Below are positions 10,833-57,475 of a DNA stretch of 64,000 nt, piece by piece. The notes beneath the pieces were generated by a model. That model worked only from the letters and a program-made list of their open reading frames with translations, was not told the DNA's origin and did not search any database. Where the stretch lies: NCBI GenBank assembly GCA_976226885.1, contig OZ320314.1:41292001-41356000 (forward strand). Direction: 5' to 3'. The first letter of the stretch is position 1, and each line of letters begins with the position of its first letter. Origin of the DNA: Iphione sp. A-MEVVRFRX5. Its lineage: Eukaryota. Made by a program: the position numbers and the translations under genes.

Positions 10833-13499
10833 ATTAAGATAGCAATCTCCGAAGATAGCAGTCAAATAAATATTTGGTCTAAGATTAAACACACGATAAA
10901 GCATGCGTTCCACTGTTGAATATTCGTCCATTGCCAAAATCGATGGGCGAGCTTTACCGATGTGTTTTAGCAGGCAATAGTCTCCTTTCTTGTGGATCCG
11001 TGTAATCTATGAATGGTCGATACTAGGTTGGATGTCCAATGTTACAACTCAGTTTTTATCGTCTTCCTATTAAACTATTGAAGTGAAATCATTGAATAAA
11101 TAGTGGAAGCTTTTATACGAAGCACCACACACGTTGACTAAAATGGCTAACAAGGTCATTTATTTAAGTTTGCCTCTATGTTCTACCTGTGTACTACATG
11201 GGGATGAAATGGGGCCACCGAGATCGGTTATCCGACTTGTGACGAGCACAAACAATAGTTCCACTGTCCCTTGAACCCGTGTATGAACTGTGACTACAAA
11301 TCAGTTGGAAGGTTAATATAATTTGTCTTTCTTCAGATGATTGTGAAAACGTTTAATCTGACACCAATGTGTGGTAATTTACTTACATTCTCCAGTGAAA
11401 AATATTAAATCACATCTTAGAATTCGGATGAGAGTAATTTCTTTGAATCAAATCGTAACCAGGGCTCCATCCCTTAAGTAAATGTGTCTTTTTCTACTCT
11501 AGAATATGTTACCTTCCACCAGACGAGGATGGGGAGCACAGTAGCTACGTAGAAAAATGTACCAGTAGATCACTTAGAATGCTCCTATACAACAGGTTAT
11601 ATCTATCAAAGTGAACCTAAAATTTGCGTCTAAAAATTCGCATCTGTTAGAGCTGGTAGCGAGCTATTCACGCATTACCACAAAAATCTGGCCAGCAGTA
11701 CTAGTTTAATGCTGCCAGCCCTCTTATAAGCTGGTTCGTTCGTTGCTTGGCAGTCATCAGGTGCCCTGACCCTTTAGACTCGCACCCCAGAAGTCTGGTC
11801 ACCTGTCTTTCAAATAACTGTGAGCAACCCACATTCAAGTATCAACTGACAATTTAGATGGCGATTTTAATTTGCTACTATTTGTTTCATGTCTATGGTT
11901 TTGATCTCAGTGTAGCATCGAATTCTTCTGCTGAGCATTTCAACTGAACTGTATTTTAAAGCTACTATCCGTCTATGCAATTTCATGGAGCAATTGCCTA
12001 GATGCTATAACCATCTTCATACCACTGAATTGAATCAAATGACAATTCTTTCTCCAATATAATGTATGGCATACATATTTGTGCTTTTTTTCTTTCAAAA
12101 ACAACTTGTGATGCTCTCTATAAAAATCCATAATCAATTAAGTCCCATCCATTTACTAATTACATTAAATGATTAGTGAATGAAAGATGCCTAATCTTCA
12201 CAAGGACCTGCAGATTATCCTTTAATACACCGGATCAATAACGATGAAAGAGAGCGCCATATTACTTATGGAGTTTCATAAGATGCGTAGAATCGATCAG
12301 TTGATGTGAAGCTCTGCATGGATTCACTTGGGCCAGCCTGTCTACCCCTCATTCAGTTCGTCTGTCATTCACTAGGTAGCAACACCGTTGCAGGTGAATT
12401 TTTGTTTTCATACCAGATGGCGGGGTAAACCAGTCGCACGAACTTCCAGATATTGAGATTATTACTGATGAACTGGTGCTCTGCAAGGGAGGAAGCAGCT
12501 GTCTATGAAACTAAGGTAGACGTGGTTAAAATGTCGAGTATACTAACGCCAGTGATGCTAGAGTGGCCATGTGCATTGCCTCCGACACACTGTCGGTGTT
12601 CTGTTAATCTATATTCTAACAGGAGGCAGCACAGTCTCGTGCAGATTTTTGCTTTCATAACACCAGGGGGCACGTATGTTCTCGAATATGATCATGTGCC
12701 ATGTGGTGAGGAAAAGCCTGAACTCTCGAGTTGTTTTGGACTTGATCCAAGTTTAAACGCGATGAGGTGTAGCATGAAACTTCGATGAGCCGTTGGAAAA
12801 GAGAGGTTTGCTAAAAGTTGGTTTTCTGTTTTGCGGTATAAGTGATGACAGATGAATCAACTGGGCAGTACAAAACAGACCCAAGTGTTACGACGTATCG
12901 AATAGATTTTCTCTCATCACAATTGGTAGTGCTAAATAAGAGATTTGCATGAAGGCGACTTGAGGTATCAAACTGCGGCAGCGACAAATACTTTCAGTAG
13001 AAAAAAACGAACTGCCTGCGCAGATCCCGAAGCGAATACATGTACAATAAACATAAATCCATAGCTTCCGGCTTAGATTAATGGTAATTATACGTCTTGT
13101 ATTGGGGTACAAGTGTACTTAGTCACCCGCGGCCTCAGGCCAATATCAGCAGACAAATACCCATAGCACATTATGGAGACAAACCCTGATTAGACCATCG
13201 ATCCATGTTTCGCTTGACTGTTTAAGGGTGGCTCTTTGTTGCTCTCCATCCACCGTGAAACCCCCAAAGACCAAAACACAGCTTGTATAGGCTAACCCTT
13301 CGCGGGGCCTGCCCCTTGGAGATCAATACGGGGTATCAAAGCTACTGCCAACTGAGTGTTGGGTGGGCAGCGGGCTGTCAATTAGTTGTGACTATGGGCG
13401 AGGCGTGAAGTGGGCAGTAGCGGGCTTCGGGTTTGGCGGTTTTATGGGCGATCAATAGCTTAACACATCGATTGGAGAAGGAACGCGCGTGTGTGTGTA

Positions 13500-13506
<7 letters not shown>

Positions 13507-13566
<60 letters not shown>
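13507..13566. repeat. (GA)30 microsatellite preceded by short (GT)n
   Basis: Seen directly. Confidence 0.97.
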
Positions 13567-13570
<4 letters not shown>

Positions 13571-13729
13571 GAGGAAGGAGTGAAAAAAGAGGGGTAGAGA
13601 ATAAGTAGAGGAATAGTAGCCCGAAGAATTAATGTTGGAGTGTGTGCTTCGCCTCGTTTAATCCCTACTGCGCGAATGAATTACACATCAGGGCTTACTA
13701 CTATATTAATATGCTCAGCACTTTGTTAA

Positions 13730-14875: not shown

Positions 14876-15510
14876 GGCCGGCATTCCATGTACACGGAAT
14901 ACGTGTCCGGAGCACGGAGGCCATCCGGAAATTATGCCTGTTTTCCCGTGTCTCCGGAGAGATGCTTTCCATGTGTGCGTGCGTGCATGTGTGTGTGGGG
15001 GGGGAGGGAGGGAGAGGGAGAGAGAGAGAGAGAGAGAGAGATTGTGTGTTTTTTTGTGGAGGTTGAGGCATATTGGTGGAAATTGTGCAGTTTTTGTGGA
15101 GGTTGAGGTATATTGGTGGAAATTGTGCAGTTTTTTTGTGGAGGTTGAGGCATATCGGTGGAAATTGTGCAGTTTTTTGTGGAGGTTGAGGCATGTCGGT
15201 GAAAATTGTGCAGTTTTTAGGCAAATGATATGCAAATTAAAAAATCTTTCACAACATCTGTCATATGACAGACAGTGTCTGTCCTGCTCCAAACCGCCAT
15301 CTCTCTCTTCTACTGGCCTCTGTGGGTCTCCGGAGTCCGGAATCCGGAGAAATTTACGGCCCAGGTTCGTTTTTGGCCCACGGACCCGGACCACGGACCC
15401 ACGGACCCGGGTCCATGGAAAGCCATCAAGAAGAGTGCTTCAGATCGTTTTTTTCCGTACTACGGAGTCCGTACTACGGACACTGTTTCCGTATGCATGG
15501 AAAGCCAGCC
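14876..15510. mobile_element. PIF/Harbinger-like MITE (635 bp) with internal micro- and minisatellite
   Basis: 34-bp imperfect TIRs (27/34) starting GGCYGGC-TTCCATG; TTA TSD at 14873-14875 and 15511-15513; no coding capacity (the overlapping ORFs are repeat artefacts). Confidence 0.8.
15049..15213 (+). repeat. Minisatellite, 4 x ~41-bp unit (ttttgtggaggttgaggcatattggtggaaattgtgcag)
   Basis: Four tandem copies seen directly inside the MITE. Confidence 0.92.
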
Positions 15511-20300: not shown

Positions 20301-20784
20301 ATAGGCATTTTATAGTACATGTACACTCCCAAACGGGTTCGGTTTGGAAGGGTTTATGCATATATATGCCATATAATTAGTATAGTTTTTTAATATATAT
20401 ATTTGTTGATCTCCAGGGTTAGTCACCAAGGTGCTATTATGTTGCCTAGGTTTCATGACGTTGTTCGTTCTTCTCAACTGCCACTCTCTCAGGAAATTTA
20501 GAGAAAGGATGACAAAACAAAGACGTACACTTTCTCTTGAATAAAACCTATAATTTTCTTAGGTTTAGCTAAGGTGAAAATATAGCATCTAAAAACTATA
20601 CTTTCGATTACAGATGCATCCCTTTAGCTTGATCGTCCCATATCTTCTCATCTAGCATCTTAATTAATGTTAAATTAATTATGCGATATCGTATATTCAT
20701 AATCATAATTATCCTCTCCTATCCCCATCTGAGAACATGAAATTTATTTCACGATAATTGAAGCAATGAGTATATATAATTAAT

Positions 20785-20803
20785 CACGTGGTCAGTGACG
20801 TCA
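20785..20803. promoter_or_regulatory. E-box (CACGTG, 20785-20790) and CRE-type palindrome (TGACGTCA, 20796-20803) at the DIRS left end; candidate terminal promoter
   Basis: Motifs seen directly; function is inference. Confidence 0.4.
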
Positions 20804-20838
20804 TACCAAGGGAAGAGCCGTGCACGCTTCTAGTCATT
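20794..20838 (+). repeat. DIRS left inverted terminal repeat (45 bp, after a 14-nt left extension)
   Basis: Reverse complement of 27344-27388 at 43/45 positions. Confidence 0.93.
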
Positions 20839-22090
20839 CTGTGCTTATCATTTGGAGTGGACAGACGTATGTCTGTGTGCTCCAGATGTTCTAGTCGATC
20901 TCCACCTCCCCTGACTATATGCCAGGGAAAGGGGGGATCATCTGAGTATGCAAAGGCTCAGGAGGCTCCCCTTCTGGCCAAATGTAGCCCTGGCATATTC
21001 ACAAGTTTGTGAGATACTTTCTTTGCCAGAAAAAGCTCTCACCCTCACACACCCTGCCATCTTGGGGAGTGTGAAAAACTGAACATGGTTACACATTGGT
21101 AATGTCACTTGCCTTGCTCAGTAAGTCTCCTTGAGGTATCCTGGAACAAAAACGGGAATAATTCCTCGGAGCCGGGTCGGGCCTAGGCCCGCACCCGAGT
21201 TCTGCACCGATCCGGGTTCTACGGGCAACTTCTGCCCGAAAATCCAAAATGGCCGCAGAGCGCCGAAACTCGGTAAGACCAATGCGGGTCAGACCCGCAA
21301 GGTTCTCCCGAAAATTCGGAAAGATCCGACGAACTCGGGCTCTCGGATTTTTTCCGGGCCGTACGGAGCCGAAACTCGGCAAGCACGTTGCGGGTCGGGC
21401 CCGCAGTGCTCCGGGACTGCTCCGGGATCATTCCGGATAAGTTCGGAACCGAATCCAAAATGGCCGCAGCCCACCAAAACTTGGGGAAAAGTACGCACAA
21501 CGTACACACTATGTTCCCACAAAAGCGCAGCTCTGAAATGACATGCAGGCGGGTACAAAGTCCAACCCCAGTACGGGGTCCCCCACGGGCGCCCGTGTCC
21601 TGTGATGTCACGAGAGCGCAGACGTGGGTGGAAGCACCCAAAAATGTTTGTACCATCCCCCCGGAGGTGCAGCCAAAGTCGCGGCGCGGACCCGCAAGTA
21701 GACTCCCTTCGGGACCACGGCCACTTTGTTATGGTCCCCCGGCCATAAGTCTGGCCAAAATGCTCCGATTGCGCTGAAACTTGGTGTGCATATCCGCCTT
21801 ACTCGGGGCTATGTGTATTCCAAAAATAAAGTTGATCCGACAAATTACGGCGCAGTTATGCCTGAAACAGTGGTTACACTTTTGCCGGGGTCGAGTGCGG
21901 GAGACACCATGTTGGGAGACCTCGGGTCTCAGAGAGCAAAGTTCTCAAAAACTTGCACATGGGTCTCAGGAGCGCGCATATGAAATTTCGTGTGCATAGG
22001 ACCAACGGTTCAAAAGTTATCGTGAAAACACTGCCCCTACCTATACTTTTGGCACTGATGGCAAGATGGCCACAGATGGCAAAGGGGGGG

Positions 22091-22222
22091 GGACAGTCCA
22101 AACAGGCCAAGGGGACAGTCCAAACGGGCCAAGGGGGACAGTCCAAACGGGACTCCCCCCCTTATCAGTTGTTGTCTCAAGTCCGGACCTGGGTGTAAGC
22201 AGCCCGGACCTGGGTGTAAGCA
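22091..22222 (+). repeat. Short tandem repeats in DIRS leader: 3 x ggacagtccaaac (22-23 bp period) and 2 x ccggacctgggtgtaagca (21 bp period)
   Basis: Copies at 22091, 22113, 22136 and at 22183, 22204. Confidence 0.9.
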
Positions 22223-22337
22223 CTCTGGAGGGGTTCATAAGGAGCCCCCTGGACAGGGTTCTGGCATCTGCTGATCACCTGCTGACCAGCTAAGAAGACC
22301 AGGAGCAACTCCGAGTCATCAACTCTACTTGATCACC

Positions 22338-23898
22338 ATGGCCGAACAAGCTACCGAGATAGAAGTGGTAAAGTTCAGCTCAGGGCCCGACACGGACTCT
22401 GAGGTGATTTTCCCTTCATTGCAGTGTGGACAAGTTCCTCCCCCTGGGGGAGATCTTGATGACACACAGCCTGACCCAGCACTGCAACTTGGCAAAGTCA
22501 TCCTCCTCTGGCAAGGGGACCTCTACCAAAGGTTCCTCCTCCAGGTCGGCGCCCCCCAAGCCATCCGGCTCGGGACGACAGGGGTCCACACCCAAGCCTG
22601 GGGCAAACCCCAAGTCTGGGGACAACTCCAGGGCAGGGCCCTCCAACTTGGAGTTGGCCTCCAACGCCATCCCGGAGCCCAGAGGAAGACCGACTAAGAA
22701 GCGGAAGCGGCGGGTCCGCTCCCGCTCCAGGTCGTCATCGTCGTCGGAATCGTCCAGATCCCGCTCCGACTCGAGGAGCCGCTCCAAGAGGTCCCGGTCG
22801 GGTAGTTGGGGGAGTCGCTTCTCCTCCAACGACCAGATGATGATGGCCATGCGGTGCATAGCCGAGACCTGTGCGGAGCGATTGGGACTCAAGCGCCGCA
22901 GCTAATCTCCCCCGCCCAGAAGGCACAAGAGGAGTCGCCATTACGTCTCCAGCTCGGAGAGCGAAGCAGAGATGACGGACGGCTGGGGGACGATGGAGGA
23001 GACCTCCTTCGTTCCGGAGACCCCGATGGACATGGACGACCCTCCGGCGCCCTCGCCGGGGTCCGACCCGGTTCCGGCGGCCCCAACCCCAGTGGGACCG
23101 GCGCCACAGCCCGTGACCTGTGGAGGCCTGGACGAGTTCCAGGCCGAGAGACCGGCAGCGGAGGACCGCACGACAACGGCGGCGTCCCCAGCAGTGGTGC
23201 AGTTGGTCACCACTTACTGGAACTACCCCTTGACCAGAGCCAAGGCCAAGGAACTTACGGACAAACTGGAGCGTCCGGAAAACCTGAAGGTGCTGAAGCG
23301 CACCAAACTCAACCCGGAGCTCGTTCTGAAGAAGGGGGACATCAACCTGGACAGGCAGACGGCGGAAATTCTCCACCTCAACCAGTTTGCTTCCCTTCCC
23401 CTGATCGAGATCGCCAGTGCTTACGATGCGGGCACCCCCCTGGACCCTAAGGAGGTGGTCACGTCGCTCCAGCTGATGGGCAGATCGTCCTTTCTCTCGA
23501 ACCACCAGTGAAGGGACATCATCCGCTTCAGGCTGCCCCCTGCCTACCGCCGCCTCTGCCAGACGGGGCCCCAAGACGATTGGGAGCTCCTCCTGGGAGA
23601 GAACATCCCAGACAGGGTCCGGGAGTGCTCCGAGGCGCGCAAGTTGGAACAGACCCTCATGACGAGGCGTCCCTCGTGGCCGGCGGCGCCGCCCCAGAGA
23701 CAGTCAGCACCTCAGGCAGGAGGTTCTGGCTACAACAGCAGCCAGCAAAGCAACTGCAGCCATGGGAGGAGCGGTAGCAGAAGCAGCAACAACAACTACA
23801 AGCAGCGTCCAAAAAACGGGCAGCGCCGGCAGGTCAAGAGACCTGCCAACAACAGCAACAACAAGAGCCAGCACGGCCAGCGCCAGAGGAAGAAGTAG
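22338..23898 (+). pseudogene. gag: DIRS ORF1 (gag-like), disrupted
   Basis: ATG in strong Kozak context (caccATGG, 22338). One frameshift (~22440-22500) leads into a single frame that continues to TAG 23896-23898 through in-frame stops at 22903 (TAA) and 23509 (TGA). Contains an RS-rich/KKRKRR segment and RDIIRFRLPPAYRRLC...LLGENI, resembling by eye the conserved DIRS1 ORF1 block. Confidence 0.8.
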
Positions 23899-25886
23899 AG
23901 GTGAGTGCCCCTACCTCCTCTCCAGTTGTTTGTGATGTTGTTGTACATGACATTGTGCCCTCGCTTGACTCGGACCCCACTCTGGACTTTACAATCACCC
24001 CTGGCCCCTTCAGGGCCGGCAGAGTGGCTGACAGGGCCCACAGGTGGGAGGCAATCACTGAGAACCAGTACATCAAGAACCTAGCAACAGGAGTTACCTT
24101 GGATCTATCCGGACGACCGGAACAGAGCCACATCCCCTCTGTCCCAGAGTCACACAAGGACTTTGGTATTTTCCGCAAGCTGGTCGACGGCTTGCTGGAA
24201 GAGGGGGTGGTGAAGGAGGCGACGGCGTCGCCCAGGGCTTTCGTGTCCACGATTTTCCTGAGGCCCAAGAAGGATGGCTCTTTTCGGATCATCCTCAACC
24301 TCAAGAACTTTAATTTCTGGGTCCCTCACCAACATTTCAAAATGGAAAACTTGACCTCGTTTCTACCACTAGTGGGCAAGGGCTACTACTTCACCTCGGT
24401 GGACATTGTCCATGCCTATTTCTCAGTCTCGGTCAGGGATCGGGACAGAGACTTCCTCCAGTTCATACTGGGGGAACATAGGTATAGGTTCACCTGCCTA
24501 CCCAACAGACTGGCATCCGCACCGCGGATGTTCACCCAGATGATGCGAGCGGTACTGGGGGACGTACGACAACGCACTGACACCATTGTGTCGGCCTACT
24601 TGGACGACATCATTGTATGCCACAGCGATGCGAAGGTCATGGAACAGGGAACGAAGGTCCTGGTGGAGACACTACAGGACTTAGGGTTCCTGATACATCC
24701 CGACAAGTCAGTGCTCAGGCCAGTACAACGCATCGAACACCTGGGGTTCGTCATCGACTCCGAGTCGCTGATGGTCCGCTTACCGGAGGCAAAGGTGAAG
24801 GAGATAGAGGAAACTTGCAGGGAGTTCCTACACAAGGACCCCATCTCAGTCCGGCAGCTAGCTGCCTTGGCTGGCAAGTTGCAGGCTACCGCCCAAGCCA
24901 TACCCCTAGCCCATCTGTACAGCATGAATATCGTGCTGGACAAAAACCAGGCCCTGCGGGCTGCAAGGGGAGACTTCGAAGGCCCAGCCTCGCTGTCGGA
25001 GCGATCCAAGAGAGACTTGCGATGGTGGCTGCGACATGTGAGCCGAGACGAAAGGGCCATCAAAGACCCGCCCGTACACGTCAAGATCTACACCGACGCA
25101 TCCAAGACGGGCTGGGGAATGTAAGTGGAAAAGACAGGAGAATCCTACGGGGAGGCCTGGTCGACTACCACGGCCCTTAGACACATAAACGAACTGGAGT
25201 TGTGGGCAGTCAAGGCTGCCCTGTGCAGGACCAGACCCCTCTGCACAGGGAGACATGTCCGGATACACACGGACAATACGACGACGCTGCTCACAATCCA
25301 GAACAAGGGCTCTGCCAAGTCCCCGGCCTGCAACAGCTTGGTCAGGGAAATCCTTGTGTTCTGTGAGAAGCATGACATCACCCTGACCATGGCCTTCTGC
25401 CCTGGGGTGGAGAACACGGAGGCAGATGAGGCGAGCCGACAATTCAAGGACTGTGGGGAGTGGGCCCTAAACCCCACTGTGTTTGCCACTCTCCTCGAAC
25501 AAAAAGGGGGGGGGCACCTGAACATTGACATCGACCTATTCGCCTCAAGATTTAACCACAAATGTGCCCGTTATGTGTCGTGGTCTTATGACCCATGTGC
25601 CTATGCTATGGACGCTTTCACCCTGGACTGGTCCGGGATGAACGCACTGATTTTCCCTCCTTTTGCTGTCATCCCTAGGGTGCTGCAGAAGATCCGTCGG
25701 GAGAGGCCGCGGGGGCTGCTCATCATCCCTCATTGGAAGACGCAGCCCTGGTTCAACGCGGCCAGGACGTTGCCCCGACGAGCGGAGCAGAGGATCCGGG
25801 TCGAGAGGGACACCCTGATCCGGGGACACCATGGGTCCCTCGGGTGCGTAGACGGCAAGATGCACCTGTGGATACTGACCCTCTGA
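23778..25886 (+). pseudogene. pol: DIRS ORF2 (pol): reverse transcriptase + RNase H + DNA adenine methyltransferase-like domain; one premature stop
   Basis: RT motifs PKKDGSFRIILNL, DIVHAYF, LPNRL (degenerate G>R), YLDD (24597-24608), HLGF. RNase H TDAS..GWG, HINELEL, TDN, ADEASR. MT-like DLFAS (25533) and IFPPF (25650). ORFs 23901..25124 and 25125..25886 are the same frame, split by TAA 25122-25124. Frame open from 23778; first ATG only at 24342. Confidence 0.95.
23811..23847 (+). promoter_or_regulatory. Candidate -1 programmed ribosomal frameshift signal (A AAA AAC + 8-bp hairpin)
   Basis: Heptamer 23811-23817 is correctly phased in the gag frame; pol is the -1 frame and open here; hairpin GGCAGGTC-aaga-GACCTGCC at 23828-23847. 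Confidence 0.6.
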
Positions 25887-25900
25887 AGTCCAAGCTTTAG

Positions 25901-26848
25901 GGGGTCGGAATACCGGGAACGGTGGCGGACAGGATGATCCAGGGCTGGGCCAAGTCCACGAGGAAGCTATACCTGTCGCTACTGTCGAAGTTCGAGACGT
26001 TCTGCGAGACCAAGAACGTTGACTCCAGTGCCCCTACCCTGGTGCAGGCACTGGAATTTCTGGACAGTTTGGCCCGAGCAGACATGTCCTACTCTTATGT
26101 GAATGCCCCCCGATGTCTCCTCTCCAGCTTTGTCATCCTGGAGGGGAACCTCACTTTGGGATCACACCCCCACGTGATCAGGCTCATGAGAGGGGTGAGA
26201 TGCGGGAAGCCCTTCACACCACGATTCGAGGAGGTCTGGGACGTCGCCCTGGTCCTGCGTAAGCTCGCGACCTGGGGCAAGGCCCACACCCTCAGCCTGG
26301 AGGCCCTCACAAGGAAGACGATCACCCTGTGCCTCTTAGCCTCGGGGCAAAGAGTACAGACACTCCAGGTCACGAAGAGATCAGACGTCCGCTTCGAGGC
26401 TGACGCTTGTCAGATACGAGTGACGGGACGCCTGAAACACTCAAGGGACAACTTCGAAAATCCCACACTAGTCTTCAAGCCATTCGAGGACAGGACCCTG
26501 TGCTTTTATGAACATTTGGCCACGTACATCGCGGCCACAGACGAGTTCAAGCACAAGGGTCAGTTGTTCGTGGGATACTCACACAAGACTCCGGTCACCT
26601 GCACGACCCTCGCCAGATACACAAAAGAGACTCTTAAGGCATGCGGCCTGAACACGGACTGTTTTACGGCCCACAGTACTAGGTCGGCCTCCACTAGCAA
26701 GGGCCTACAGATGGGGCTGCCCCTAGACACAGTCTTGAAGGCAGGGGGCTGGTCAGGCGAATCAACGTTTGCCCGATTCTACAAAAGACCAATCAGCTCA
26801 GACCAGAACTTTAGCAGTACTATACTGGGCAGTGCCCACACGACCTAA
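25901..26848 (+). CDS. DIRS ORF3: tyrosine recombinase (lambda-integrase family)
   Basis: Open frame from 25901 (first ATG 25934) to TAA 26846-26848. Catalytic set intact: R in SGQR (26351), K in LKHSR, HSTR (26672-26683), W in GGWS (26750), Y in RFY (26780). N-terminal W..STRKLY...F..FC typical of DIRS YRs. Confidence 0.93.
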   Translation, partial: GVGIPGTVADRMIQGWAKSTRKLYLSLLSKFETFCETKNVDSSAPTLVQALEFLDSLARADMSYSYVNAPRCLLSSFVILEGNLTLGSHPHVIRLMRGVRCGKPFTPRFEEVWDVALVLRKLATWGKAHTLSLEALTRKTITLCLLASGQRVQTLQVTKRSDVRFEADACQIRVTGRLKHSRDNFENPTLVFKPFEDRTLCFYEHLATYIAATDEFKHKGQLFVGYSHKTPVTCTTLARYTKETLKACGLNTDCFTAHSTRSASTSKGLQMGLPLDTVLKAGGWSGESTFARFYKRPISSDQNFSSTILGSAHTT

Positions 26849-26967
26849 GACGCACCAGTCAGGTGACCAGCTGACTAATGAACTGTAGTCATACTAGTTT
26901 GGTGGTGGATTTTTACTGCTCAACACGCATTGTCCTAGTGTGTTTTTACATCTCATGTGTTTTCAGA

Positions 26968-26973
26968 AATAAA
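26968..26973 (+). terminator. Candidate polyadenylation signal AATAAA in DIRS 3' UTR
   Basis: Hexamer 120 nt after the YR stop and upstream of the ICR; use not demonstrated. Confidence 0.3.
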
Positions 26974-27140
26974 GGCCTACGGCCAAATCTTTTCTCAATT
27001 TGGGCCTTGAGTGCCTTTATTGGGGTAAAAGGACTTTGCTCCCAATCCCCCATCGCCTTCGGGCTCACCTTGGGCCTTGCGGCACTCCTCGGAGAGCTGA
27101 GCAAGAGTCCAGGTGTCGGGATACTAGCGCGGTACACAAA

Positions 27141-27249
27141 TCTTCCCTTGGTATGACGTCACTGACCACGTGATTAATACTCTAATTACACTAGTTTACG
27201 ACGTTTGATTAGAATTAATCTAGTGGGAATAGTGACGTCATACTAAGGG
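27141..27249 (+). repeat. DIRS internal complementary region (ICR)
   Basis: 27141-27178 is the exact reverse complement (38/38) of 20779-20816. 27178-27249 is the reverse complement of 27370-27438 with 2 substitutions and one 3-nt indel. Confidence 0.95.
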
Positions 27250-27343
27250 CCCGCCCTGGGTAACCTCGATTCCACATTGGCGTAGGACTCGGTTCCCTTC
27301 CTCACCCAGATCAGCCAGTATCCCGGCACTAGAATTGGCAAAT

Positions 27344-27438
27344 AATGACTAGAAGCGCGCACGGCTCTTCCCTTAGTATGACGTCACTATTCCCACTAGA
27401 TTAATCCTAATCAAACGTAAACTAGTTTAATTAGAGTA
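27344..27438 (+). repeat. DIRS right ITR (27344-27388) plus 50-nt right extension
   Basis: Inverted match to the left ITR; the extension is complementary to the ICR. Confidence 0.93.
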
Positions 27439-28516
27439 ACAGTTTCTAAAACTCTGTGGAGATTGTTGCTTACACACACATTTTTTACACACAATTTACG
27501 CCATGTTATACTTGTCGTTCTATTAATTTGCAAACTGAACATGACTTTTTATGAATCGTGCGCAGAACCACCGGAATATGACCTCACCCTCATTTCATAA
27601 CTGGCGTTAACTACAACGTACGAGTAAGTAGATTTTAGGGGATGTCTTACAACGTAAAACCGTTTTATTGACTATTGATTCAGTTCCCATTTTGCAGATC
27701 CCGAAAGCCTATATGATAGCCTAATTGCGTGACCAAATCGTTCCACACAATCCAACCTCACTATCTGAAATCCTATCTAGTCAGCTCAGTATTTCTGGAA
27801 CTCAAAGCTCCATTTTGTCAATAACAACAATCATACGCAACTTTCTTCTAAAACGTTCAAACTCACTTAAATGGACACACTCACAAAATCTTTCTCCGTC
27901 ATGTAACAGGGTTTGCAAGGGAGGATAGTCTATGAGGACAAAGAAAAGCAGGTATGTGCTGCAGCAACCCCTTAAAATGTCATAGACTACACCCCCTTTG
28001 AGGTGTCTCGTATTTACAGCAGATGCAGATTATGTATTCAAGTAACCGATATCCAATCTGCATAACTGAAATTCTGAGTAGGCTTCGCTAATAGGCTTCG
28101 AAACTAGTGCACGATGCAAACATGACTTCTCTCTCACGTGCCATGTTGTCAGTTTGCCGTGACATTTACAATTATGTGTGGGACCACCAATTATGTCCTA
28201 CAGTAGACGAAACTTATATATATAATTATATACATTATATATTAATGTAGTAAACAAGCATCCTATTAGCTGCCCCTCTGACGTTTGTATGTAAACAGCT
28301 TTGAGAGCTCACATTCCTTTTATGACGCAGCGGCCTCATCTACGATGGGGGAATTGTACTCTTCAACCTCCCTATTGCAAGACTGCTTTTGCTAGAAAAG
28401 CAGGGTTGCTGCAATACTGGGATATTTGGGTTATATCAGACATATTATTTCGTTAATATGTACTGCCATTCACAATTATTACAGCATGGAAATGCTTAAA
28501 TCCAATAATGCTCTGG

Positions 28517-31831: not shown

Positions 31832-32510
31832 CAGTAGAATCTTACTTTGCGACCATATCAATTACCGACCAAACCGACCATTCCGACCATTTGAGCTTGG
31901 AACCGAAATATTCTCAATACTCTTCCTATTTGTTTCACTATCATTTCCAACCATATTGATTTCCGACCATTTTCAGCCTCCGACCACTACTCCTAGGGTC
32001 GTATTCTTAATATTTTACTATTGATTTCCGACCACTCCATGCTCCATGCTCCGACCACTCCATGGAGGTGTCAGCCGGCGACTTCTCTGATGTCTAGGCG
32101 TCAAGGGCACCTAAGGGCGACCTCTTTGATGTTCCTCACACCTTGGAGAGGGTGGTGGAAGAGGTTGGAGGTGTTAAAGGTGACCTCTCTGATGTTCCTC
32201 ACACCCTGGAGGAGCTGTATCTCACACCTCTTTGAGTCACTTATAGTCATCAAATTCAGCAATTTTGGACTTTTAGTCATCAAATTCAGCACTTTTTTGA
32301 CTTAAAGTAATCAAATGCAGCACTTTTTGGACTTGAAGTCATCAAATTCAGCACTTTTTGGACATTTCAGAGAGTATGCACAATTAAGTAGAGAGAGAGG
32401 GAGAAAGGGATATTGTTTCAAGCCCAGACCCCCTACAAAATTGATTTCCGACCAAACTTGCTATTGCGACCATTTGGGTCGGTACCGACCACTGGTCGGA
32501 AATTTTGTAT
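31832..32510 (+). mobile_element. Tc1/mariner(pogo)-like MITE, copy 1 (right end degenerate)
   Basis: TA|CAGTAGAATC left end; repeated ttccgacca motifs; 4 x 30-31 bp minisatellite at 32245-32363; internal similarity to the adjacent copy. Confidence 0.5.
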
Positions 32511-56744: not shown

Positions 56745-57335
56745 AGAGAGGGAGGGGCCAAAGAGAGGGAGGGATACAGAGGGAGAGAGTGAGAGAGATG
56801 GAGAGAGAGAGGAAAGAGACAGGGAGAGATAGAGGGAGAGAGGGAGGGAGGGGAGAGAGAGAGGGACAGATAGAGACTGAGGGAAAGAGGGGAGAAAAAG
56901 AAAGAGAGGCAGAGAGACAGGGGAAAAGGGGGGGAGAGAGGGGGAGAAAGAGGGGGAGAGAGAGGGGGAGAGAGGGAAAGAGAGAGGGGGAGAGAGGAAA
57001 AGAGAGAGGGGGAGAGAGAGGGAGAAAGAGGGGGATAGGGAGAGAGGGAGAAAGAGGGGGAGAGAGGGGGAGAGAGGGAGAGATAGAGGGCGAGAGAGAG
57101 GGGAGAGAGAGGGACAGAGAGGGAAGAGAGAGATGGAGGGAGAGAGAGAGGGGGAGAGAGAGAGGGGAGAGAGAGAGGGGGAGAGAGGGAGAGAGAGGGA
57201 GGGAGAGAGGGGCCATGCTTTAAGTGAGAGGGAGAGAGAGGGAGAAAGAGGGGGCGAGAGAGGGAGAGAGAGAGGGGGGGAGAGAGATAGAAGGAGAGAG
57301 AGAGGGAGAGAGAGAGAGGGAGAGAGAGAGGGGGC
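56745..57335. repeat. ~590-bp almost pure purine (G/A) low-complexity tract
   Basis: Seen directly; ggggccatgctttaagtgag occurs twice (~57208 and ~57331), indicating local duplication. The ORFs here are compositional artefacts. Confidence 0.95.
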
Positions 57336-57349
57336 CATGCTTTAAGTGA

Positions 57350-57475
57350 GTTACATACCTCATAGAGGGTGTACTTTATATATTGTAATAACAGGGATAT
57401 ATGTGCTCGGCTGTGCCTCGCACTAATCCCTGCTGTTACAATATATCGCGTACAACCCTCTACTCAGTATGTAAC
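57350..57475. mobile_element. Small palindromic (foldback) MITE-like element
   Basis: ~50-bp imperfect inverted arms (57350-57398 vs 57426-57475) around a core gtgctcggctgtgcctcgcac. Confidence 0.7.

Follow-up and report, generated by a model that had tools for sequence, protein, structure and literature searches.

A conserved slippery heptamer and hairpin at the end of the gag-like gene very likely cause a -1 ribosomal slip in a family of DIRS1-like retrotransposons, and this slip would quite probably yield Gag-Pol from unspliced RNA and, after a predicted splice, a fusion of Gag to the tyrosine recombinase (YR). We describe the family from one copy on the + strand of the window, by which we mean the whole 64,000-nucleotide stretch of DNA that was analysed and to which all positions refer, and from its relatives in the same genome and in other hosts.

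The element extends from about 20779 to 27441 and is DIRS1-like: it combines gag-like, RT-RNase H-methyltransferase and YR ORFs with inverted ends plus an internal complementary region (ICR). Its ends were placed by alignment to sister copies, and this alignment together with sequence complementarity identifies the inverted terminal repeats; the left repeat (20779-20844; sister copies start at 20772-20780) is complementary to 27338-27388 and 27123-27178, and the right repeat with its extension occupies 27338-27441. The ICR (27123-27249) matches both ends of the element, with 27123-27178 pairing with the left end and 27201-27249 pairing with 27370-27418. The first ORF (22338-23898) has no Pfam match and is named gag by position only; it measures about 550 codons in intact sisters and ends at a TAG (23896-23898) present in 35/35 copies. 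The second, pol (23778-25886), lies in the -1 frame with respect to gag, encodes RT, RNase H and methyltransferase (Pfam RVT_1, E 2e-18; RT_RNaseH, E 4e-4; and Dam, E 0.012, the last two falling below curated cut-offs) and ends at a TGA (25884) present in 28/28 copies. The YR frame (25679-26848; Phage_integrase, E 7.6e-9) is in turn -1 to pol. A 1.5-kb leader (20845-22337) that is common to sister copies and contains short internal repeats precedes the gag ATG. The host genome is very rich in DIRS-like elements (first-look candidates: 3629 for YR, 150 of them scored, and 21512 for pol), and the window also holds ordinary simple GA-rich repeats and 30-41-nt tandem repeats (13462-13627, 15038-15218, 32233-32363 and 56750-57370).

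The copy in the window is dead, and our claims therefore apply to the family. Relative to sister copies its gag carries an 89-nt deletion near 22495 as well as private stops at 22903 (1/32 copies) and 23509 (1/35), and because of this deletion and these stops upstream the copy is unable to use the shift site. The pol frame is open from 23778 to 25124, with a private stop at 25122 (1/34); in this copy neither the upstream frame leading to the site nor the -1 frame after it is fully open. A TAG at 25898 in the YR frame is found in this copy and one other. Among the 70 clade copies with an in-frame heptamer (see below), 34 have at least 480 gag codons from an ATG, and 28 have at least 660 open -1 codons after the heptamer.

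A heptamer and hairpin at the end of gag

A preliminary description of this DNA had placed the overlap of gag and pol at 23778-23898, with pol in the -1 frame, and both statements were re-derived from the ORFs. Within the overlap it had reported A AAA AAC in gag phase, a 10-nt spacer and a perfect 8-bp hairpin, all of which we confirmed in the sequence. The heptamer (23811-23817) is read by gag as CCA AAA AAC (P-K-N; codon start 23812) and is followed by the spacer (23818-23827) and by a GC-rich hairpin, the predicted stimulator (23828-23847), whose arms (23828-23835 and 23840-23847) pair at 8/8 positions around a 4-nt loop. Its fold is more stable than that of shuffled sequences (z = -4.0 for 43 nt; z = -3.0 for 83 and 121 nt). 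There are 203 X XXY YYZ heptamers on the window's + strand, and the one at 23811-23817 is the only one with a strong stem, defined as -14 kcal/mol or better at 5-10 nt downstream, a cut-off chosen after the stems were seen. When the gag overlap was recoded synonymously in 20,000 random trials, an in-frame heptamer arose in 3.9% and a heptamer with a stem in 0.06%; moreover, the signal opposes gag codon bias (AAA makes up 18% of Lys codons, and CCA 14% of Pro codons). The MMTV and HTLV gag-pro sites likewise use A AAA AAC. In the part of PMC5009743 consulted, A AAA AAC counts among the heptamers most prone to shifting. The same part gives 5-9 nt as the usual spacer of -1 sites and 3-14 nt as the span across all systems, so the 10 nt of the window's clade are outside the usual range, as had been remarked at the outset; this may point to infrequent shifting, or the conserved bases of the spacer may have a role not yet recognised.

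To sample the clade, we took 36 of 41 other DNA-search matches and 40 of 150 listed YR protein-search matches, which gave 76 loci in addition to the window; of this set with the window included, 76 have the gag-stop anchor. An in-frame heptamer is found in 70/76 copies (63 AAAAAAC, 5 AAAAAAT and 2 AAAAAAA), and among these 70 the stem is paired at 8/8 positions in 66 and at 7/8 in 4. All 40 copies chosen by YR protein likeness, and not by the signal, retain both heptamer and stem. The six copies without an in-frame heptamer were all picked by DNA and comprise two point changes, two indels and two whole-signal deletions. The near-identical copies L057 and L060 are missing the whole heptamer-stem block.

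Conservation across copies had been suggested as a check of the signal, and heptamer, phase and stem turned out to be kept in five subfamilies, with compensatory changes, while the flanks barely align. These subfamilies are 62-73% identical in YR, and in their comparison heptamer, nearly invariant spacer and stem form a distinct block, within which the stem is spelled in three ways and three different loops are found. On 9 distinct rows, 72/72 cells are paired and two of the 8 pairs are changed on both sides (pairing in slid controls, 18-44%; shuffles reaching two compensatory pairs, 35/500), and because the rows are related these compensatory changes amount to two events only, on a small tree. 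On the predicted fold and the two compensatory pairs, the putative 3' RNA structure is kept by selection. Stops common to copies are absent 3' of the site, except for a few at CGA codons in 3-5 copies.

We also looked beyond the clade within the same genome, where 70 pol matches were scored among the 21512 first-look candidates and 40 loci were taken, forming 24 clusters. These distant families are 31-35% identical to the window's pol and fall into four groups apart from the window's clade in a tree that was built by a quick method with no named DIRS1 reference included and used only to show five groups. In 37/40 of these loci pol is -1 to the longest upstream ORF, and in 11/24 clusters A AAA AAC or G GGA AAC lies 52-55 nt before the gag stop, with a spacer of 6-8 nt and a GC-rich stem of other sequence. 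A heptamer with a stem occurs at 13/854 overlap codons (11/25 representatives) vs. 0/22,627 codons in the bodies of gag and pol. In the remaining 13/24 clusters pol is in the -1 frame, yet no canonical heptamer with a strong stem was found.

Metagenome contigs from other hosts supplied 80 loci in 49 clusters, of which 11 were too short and 38 were read; the viral contigs searched contained no relative. Where the gag ORF has at least 300 codons (20 clusters), pol is -1 in 16, +1 in 2 and in frame in 2. Among the 15 intact families with a -1 pol and a true overlap, 12 have a strict heptamer (2.2 expected), spelled T TTT TTA, A AAA AAC, T TTA AAC or G GGT TTT; the spelling varies among families, and the slippery property is thus kept while the peptide differs. 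Two of the three families without a heptamer have a T6 run followed by G, and the -14 stem cut-off is passed by only 4 of the 12 with one.

A predicted splice to the recombinase

The transframe stretch ends at a predicted splice donor (23898-23906), which closes the exon at 23900, 2 nt beyond the gag stop, and is in phase 0 with respect to the -1 frame. The predicted acceptor (25646-25679) consists of a pyrimidine tract over the FPPF codons of the methyltransferase region and an AG at 25677-25678, with the exon resuming at 25679, and the predicted intron of the window (23901-25678) is therefore 1778 nt long. In the 76 copies the donor is spelled GTGAGT (41), GTGGGT (32) or otherwise (3). In 31/31 representatives the first AG after the FPP motif is a YAG that opens the YR frame in phase 0 and is preceded by 75-95% pyrimidines; it must be said that this pyrimidine richness follows in part from the FPPF peptide, and the phase from Arg/Ser codons. 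Where the serine after FPPF supplies the AG (12 representatives), its codon is AGY; in the 13 others with a serine, it is TCN. GT donor, pyrimidine tract, YAG acceptor and matching phase are thus all present and conserved, and we consider the splice from 23900 to 25679, predicted from these sequence features, to be probable. One locus, L106, is missing 17 nt that include the acceptor AG. An alternative acceptor at 25900/25901 was discarded because the L067-L079, L080-L091 and L092-L105 subfamilies have lost its AG and its tract has 60% pyrimidines. A second, loose hairpin, predicted at 23886-23920, covers both gag stop and donor; it shows some covariation among 8 sequences and could tune splicing.

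It is possible to imagine that the frameshift serves Gag-Pol only, that YR is made in another way (from the ATG at 25934, by re-initiation, or by a second -1 slip at the pol/YR overlap), and that donor and acceptor are by-products of codon choice; we regard this as improbable. In its favour, the ATG at 25934 (the first in the YR frame, situated within its conserved part) is kept in 26/26 copies, 38/40 distant loci have YR in the frame -1 to pol, and Poulter and Butler 2015, as quoted in a passage of PMC13003380, proposed that the YR ORF of Ngaro elements is expressed by a programmed frameshift. Intron-less genomic copies, sought in the window's clade with one tight pattern, gave 0 matches. Against an independent start, the YR frame varies like coding sequence 5' of ATG 25934 (third-position heterozygosity, 0.50 vs. 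0.17 and 0.26), and across families the first ATG after the acceptor lies anywhere from codon 0 to codon 208. The signal of dual coding in 25679-25886 is weak (pol third positions, 0.35 vs. 0.39-0.44 elsewhere), and the YR extension is therefore kept open and is not conserved in sequence. The pol/YR overlap of the window contains no heptamer, and a second -1 slip there was rejected. Nor do the donors look like by-products, for in the intact other-host families a phase-0 donor follows the gag stop in 11/15 vs. 0.3 expected, and none has a donor in another phase.

A gag-YR junction is also found in a database protein. When we looked for long YR proteins, 4 of the 7986 candidates scored were hits, and one of them, RefSeq XP_072015819.1 (Amphiura filiformis), is gag-like over residues 1-375 and is in the YR frame from about residue 448; the switch to that frame falls on the residue that follows the acceptor in its closest locus, L179. 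This junction, which speaks against YR being made separately, is known as a protein model only, and its family may be of a type without a frameshift. Two further database proteins, P0122 and P0123 (931 and 1320 aa), show a long-overlap layout in which the YR frame is open across the whole pol region.

Other routes to pol and layouts in other lineages

The preliminary description held that pol could not initiate an intact RT on its own, and this is borne out in the window, where the first pol ATG (24342; codon 189) is 3' of the start of the RVT_1 match (codon 163) and no ATG precedes the RT. We therefore weighed the possibility that pol is reached by internal initiation (at an upstream ATG, or at a non-AUG codon of a shortened RNA) or through splicing into the overlap, the signal being kept for the Gag peptide, for packaging or for splicing control. 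An upstream pol ATG had been named beforehand as evidence against the shift; none is common to the clade, but 17/70 copies do have one in the open -1 frame, at positions that differ by subfamily (8 copies of one subfamily at -198, 4 copies of another at -240/-249 and 2 in a third, with at least some of the remaining 3 apparently indel-shifted). These ATGs sit more than 1 kb inside gag, and neither the window's subfamily nor that of L067-L079 has them. Furthermore, in the window's subfamily shared stops shut the -1 frame 11-20 codons 5' of the heptamer; the 5' limit of the overlap, a TAG at 23775, is subfamily-specific (16/31), and another stop is found at 23751 (15/36). As for a splice acceptor within the overlap, the seven AGs at 23775-23830 are preceded by only 15-35% pyrimidines, and this candidate was rejected. 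The 13/24 distant clusters without a canonical signal leave room for such routes; on the other side, heptamers with differing peptides recur at the same place in unrelated families. We consider this whole set of explanations very improbable. Transcriptional slippage on the A6 run in place of a ribosomal shift, to which the six-A run of the window's clade and the G runs of 4-8 in ten group-2 clusters might point, seems to us scarcely credible, as six A residues are short for polymerase slippage, the run is phase-locked to gag codons and has a covarying stem on its 3' side, and in other families it is replaced by G GGA AAC, T TTA AAC or G GGT TTT.

A -1 ribosomal slip at the end of gag thus remains our preferred reading for the heptamer-bearing families, in which the donor is after the gag stop and in pol phase; in two of the distant groups, groups 2 and 3, the donor is before the stop and in gag phase. 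Group 2 (L107, L109, L112, L114-L119, L124, L126, L127, L131 and L132) has gag and pol overlapping by about 250 nt, and at the 5' end of this overlap 14/14 loci shown have, in gag phase and without a strong stem, the sequence G GGG TTY (G GGT TTT in L126), which is situated about 230-270 nt ahead of the RT. With its donor just before the gag stop and in gag phase, group 2 would therefore need no slip to make Gag-YR. In group 3 (L111, L128 and L130), G GAT TTT in gag phase immediately precedes the gag-phase donor, 30-60 nt before the RT and with no clear stem.

Other layouts were seen in other hosts. In three loci (L176:900-1260, L179:1400-1800 and L195:620-1000) gag and pol are read in a single open frame, and the gag/pol boundary has a pair of donor-like sites separated by 5 nt, the second of them in phase with YR; the first could give free Gag. 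In L162 and L205 the gag stop is in frame with pol and there is no overlap, a layout that may represent either readthrough or a mutated copy.

Proposed expression and comparison with known systems

In the mechanism that we propose for the family, ribosomes would start at the gag ATG and most would stop at the TAG at 23896, giving Gag of about 550 aa in intact sister copies. A fraction, meeting the hairpin, would slip by -1 at A AAA AAC and then read 30 codons of transframe sequence up to 23900. On unspliced RNA the slipped ribosomes would go on into pol, about 690 codons from the heptamer, to give Gag-Pol; where 23901-25678 had been removed they would read about 389 YR-frame codons to give Gag-YR. 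The donor 3' of the gag stop is in phase with the methyltransferase-region acceptor, and the one shift would therefore feed both Gag-Pol and Gag-YR, such that the slip would set the ratio of Gag to enzyme and splicing would divide the enzyme share between RT and YR. The production of Gag-Pol by a -1 shift, as put forward in the preliminary description, is supported at the level of the family; that description was incomplete in that this copy is dead and that YR is likely served too, via the splice.

More broadly, we think it reasonably likely that in DIRS1-like elements across animals a single -1 slip where gag ends controls access to both enzymes and an intron comprising almost all of pol chooses between RT and YR, and that some lineages have been rewired, either by placing the donor 5' of the gag stop and reaching pol through a non-canonical slip at G GGG UUY or G GAU UUU, or by fusing gag and pol in frame without any slip. 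Such a scheme would account for the expression of pol and YR, neither of which has a usable start codon, and it offers short testable signals (a 37-nt cassette, one donor and one acceptor) from which three proteins are predicted from one RNA. If true, annotation would also need correcting, since the recombinase would then be fused to Gag and carry about 85 additional residues read out of the pol overlap, and would not be a free ORF from its first ATG. DIRS1-like elements are common in animals, and the making of their start-less RT and YR is unexplained in the literature that we searched. Neither a frameshift signal nor a splice for these elements was found in that literature, although Goodwin and Poulter 2001, Poulter and Goodwin 2005 and Poulter and Butler 2015 may already propose a gag-pol frameshift. 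The passages of PMC3266345 on DIRS1-like ORFs give no frameshift signal and no splice for expression, and the word 'DIRS' is absent from the part of PMC5009743 searched.

Compared with the DIRS1-like YR retrotransposons treated in those passages of PMC3266345, the window's element has the same gag, RT-RNase H-methyltransferase and YR frames, inverted terminal repeats and ICR; the three ORFs described there often overlap, whereas the overlaps here are short only. Ngaro elements, as quoted in PMC13003380, share start-less downstream ORFs in -1 frames and a proposed frameshift; however, the Ngaro slip is proposed at the RT/YR overlap, where the window's element has no heptamer, and YR would here be reached via the predicted splice from the end of gag. 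With the canonical -1 sites of retroviruses and LTR elements, as set out in the part of PMC5009743 searched, the site shares an X XXY YYZ heptamer in gag phase, a 3' stem-loop and a pol in the -1 frame without a usable ATG. It departs from them in its 10-nt spacer and in a pol without protease or integrase; moreover, unlike at canonical sites, the transframe stretch ends at a splice donor, and one slip would therefore serve two enzymes. Partial splicing of a single RNA to give different downstream products is familiar from retroviral env and from copia-type elements. In contrast to those subgenomic RNAs, the predicted intron here comprises nearly the whole of pol, and in the window's clade the spliced product would also need the frameshift. 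The slip itself is textbook decoding; what is new is its occurrence in this order of retrotransposons and its coupling to a predicted splice that skips pol.
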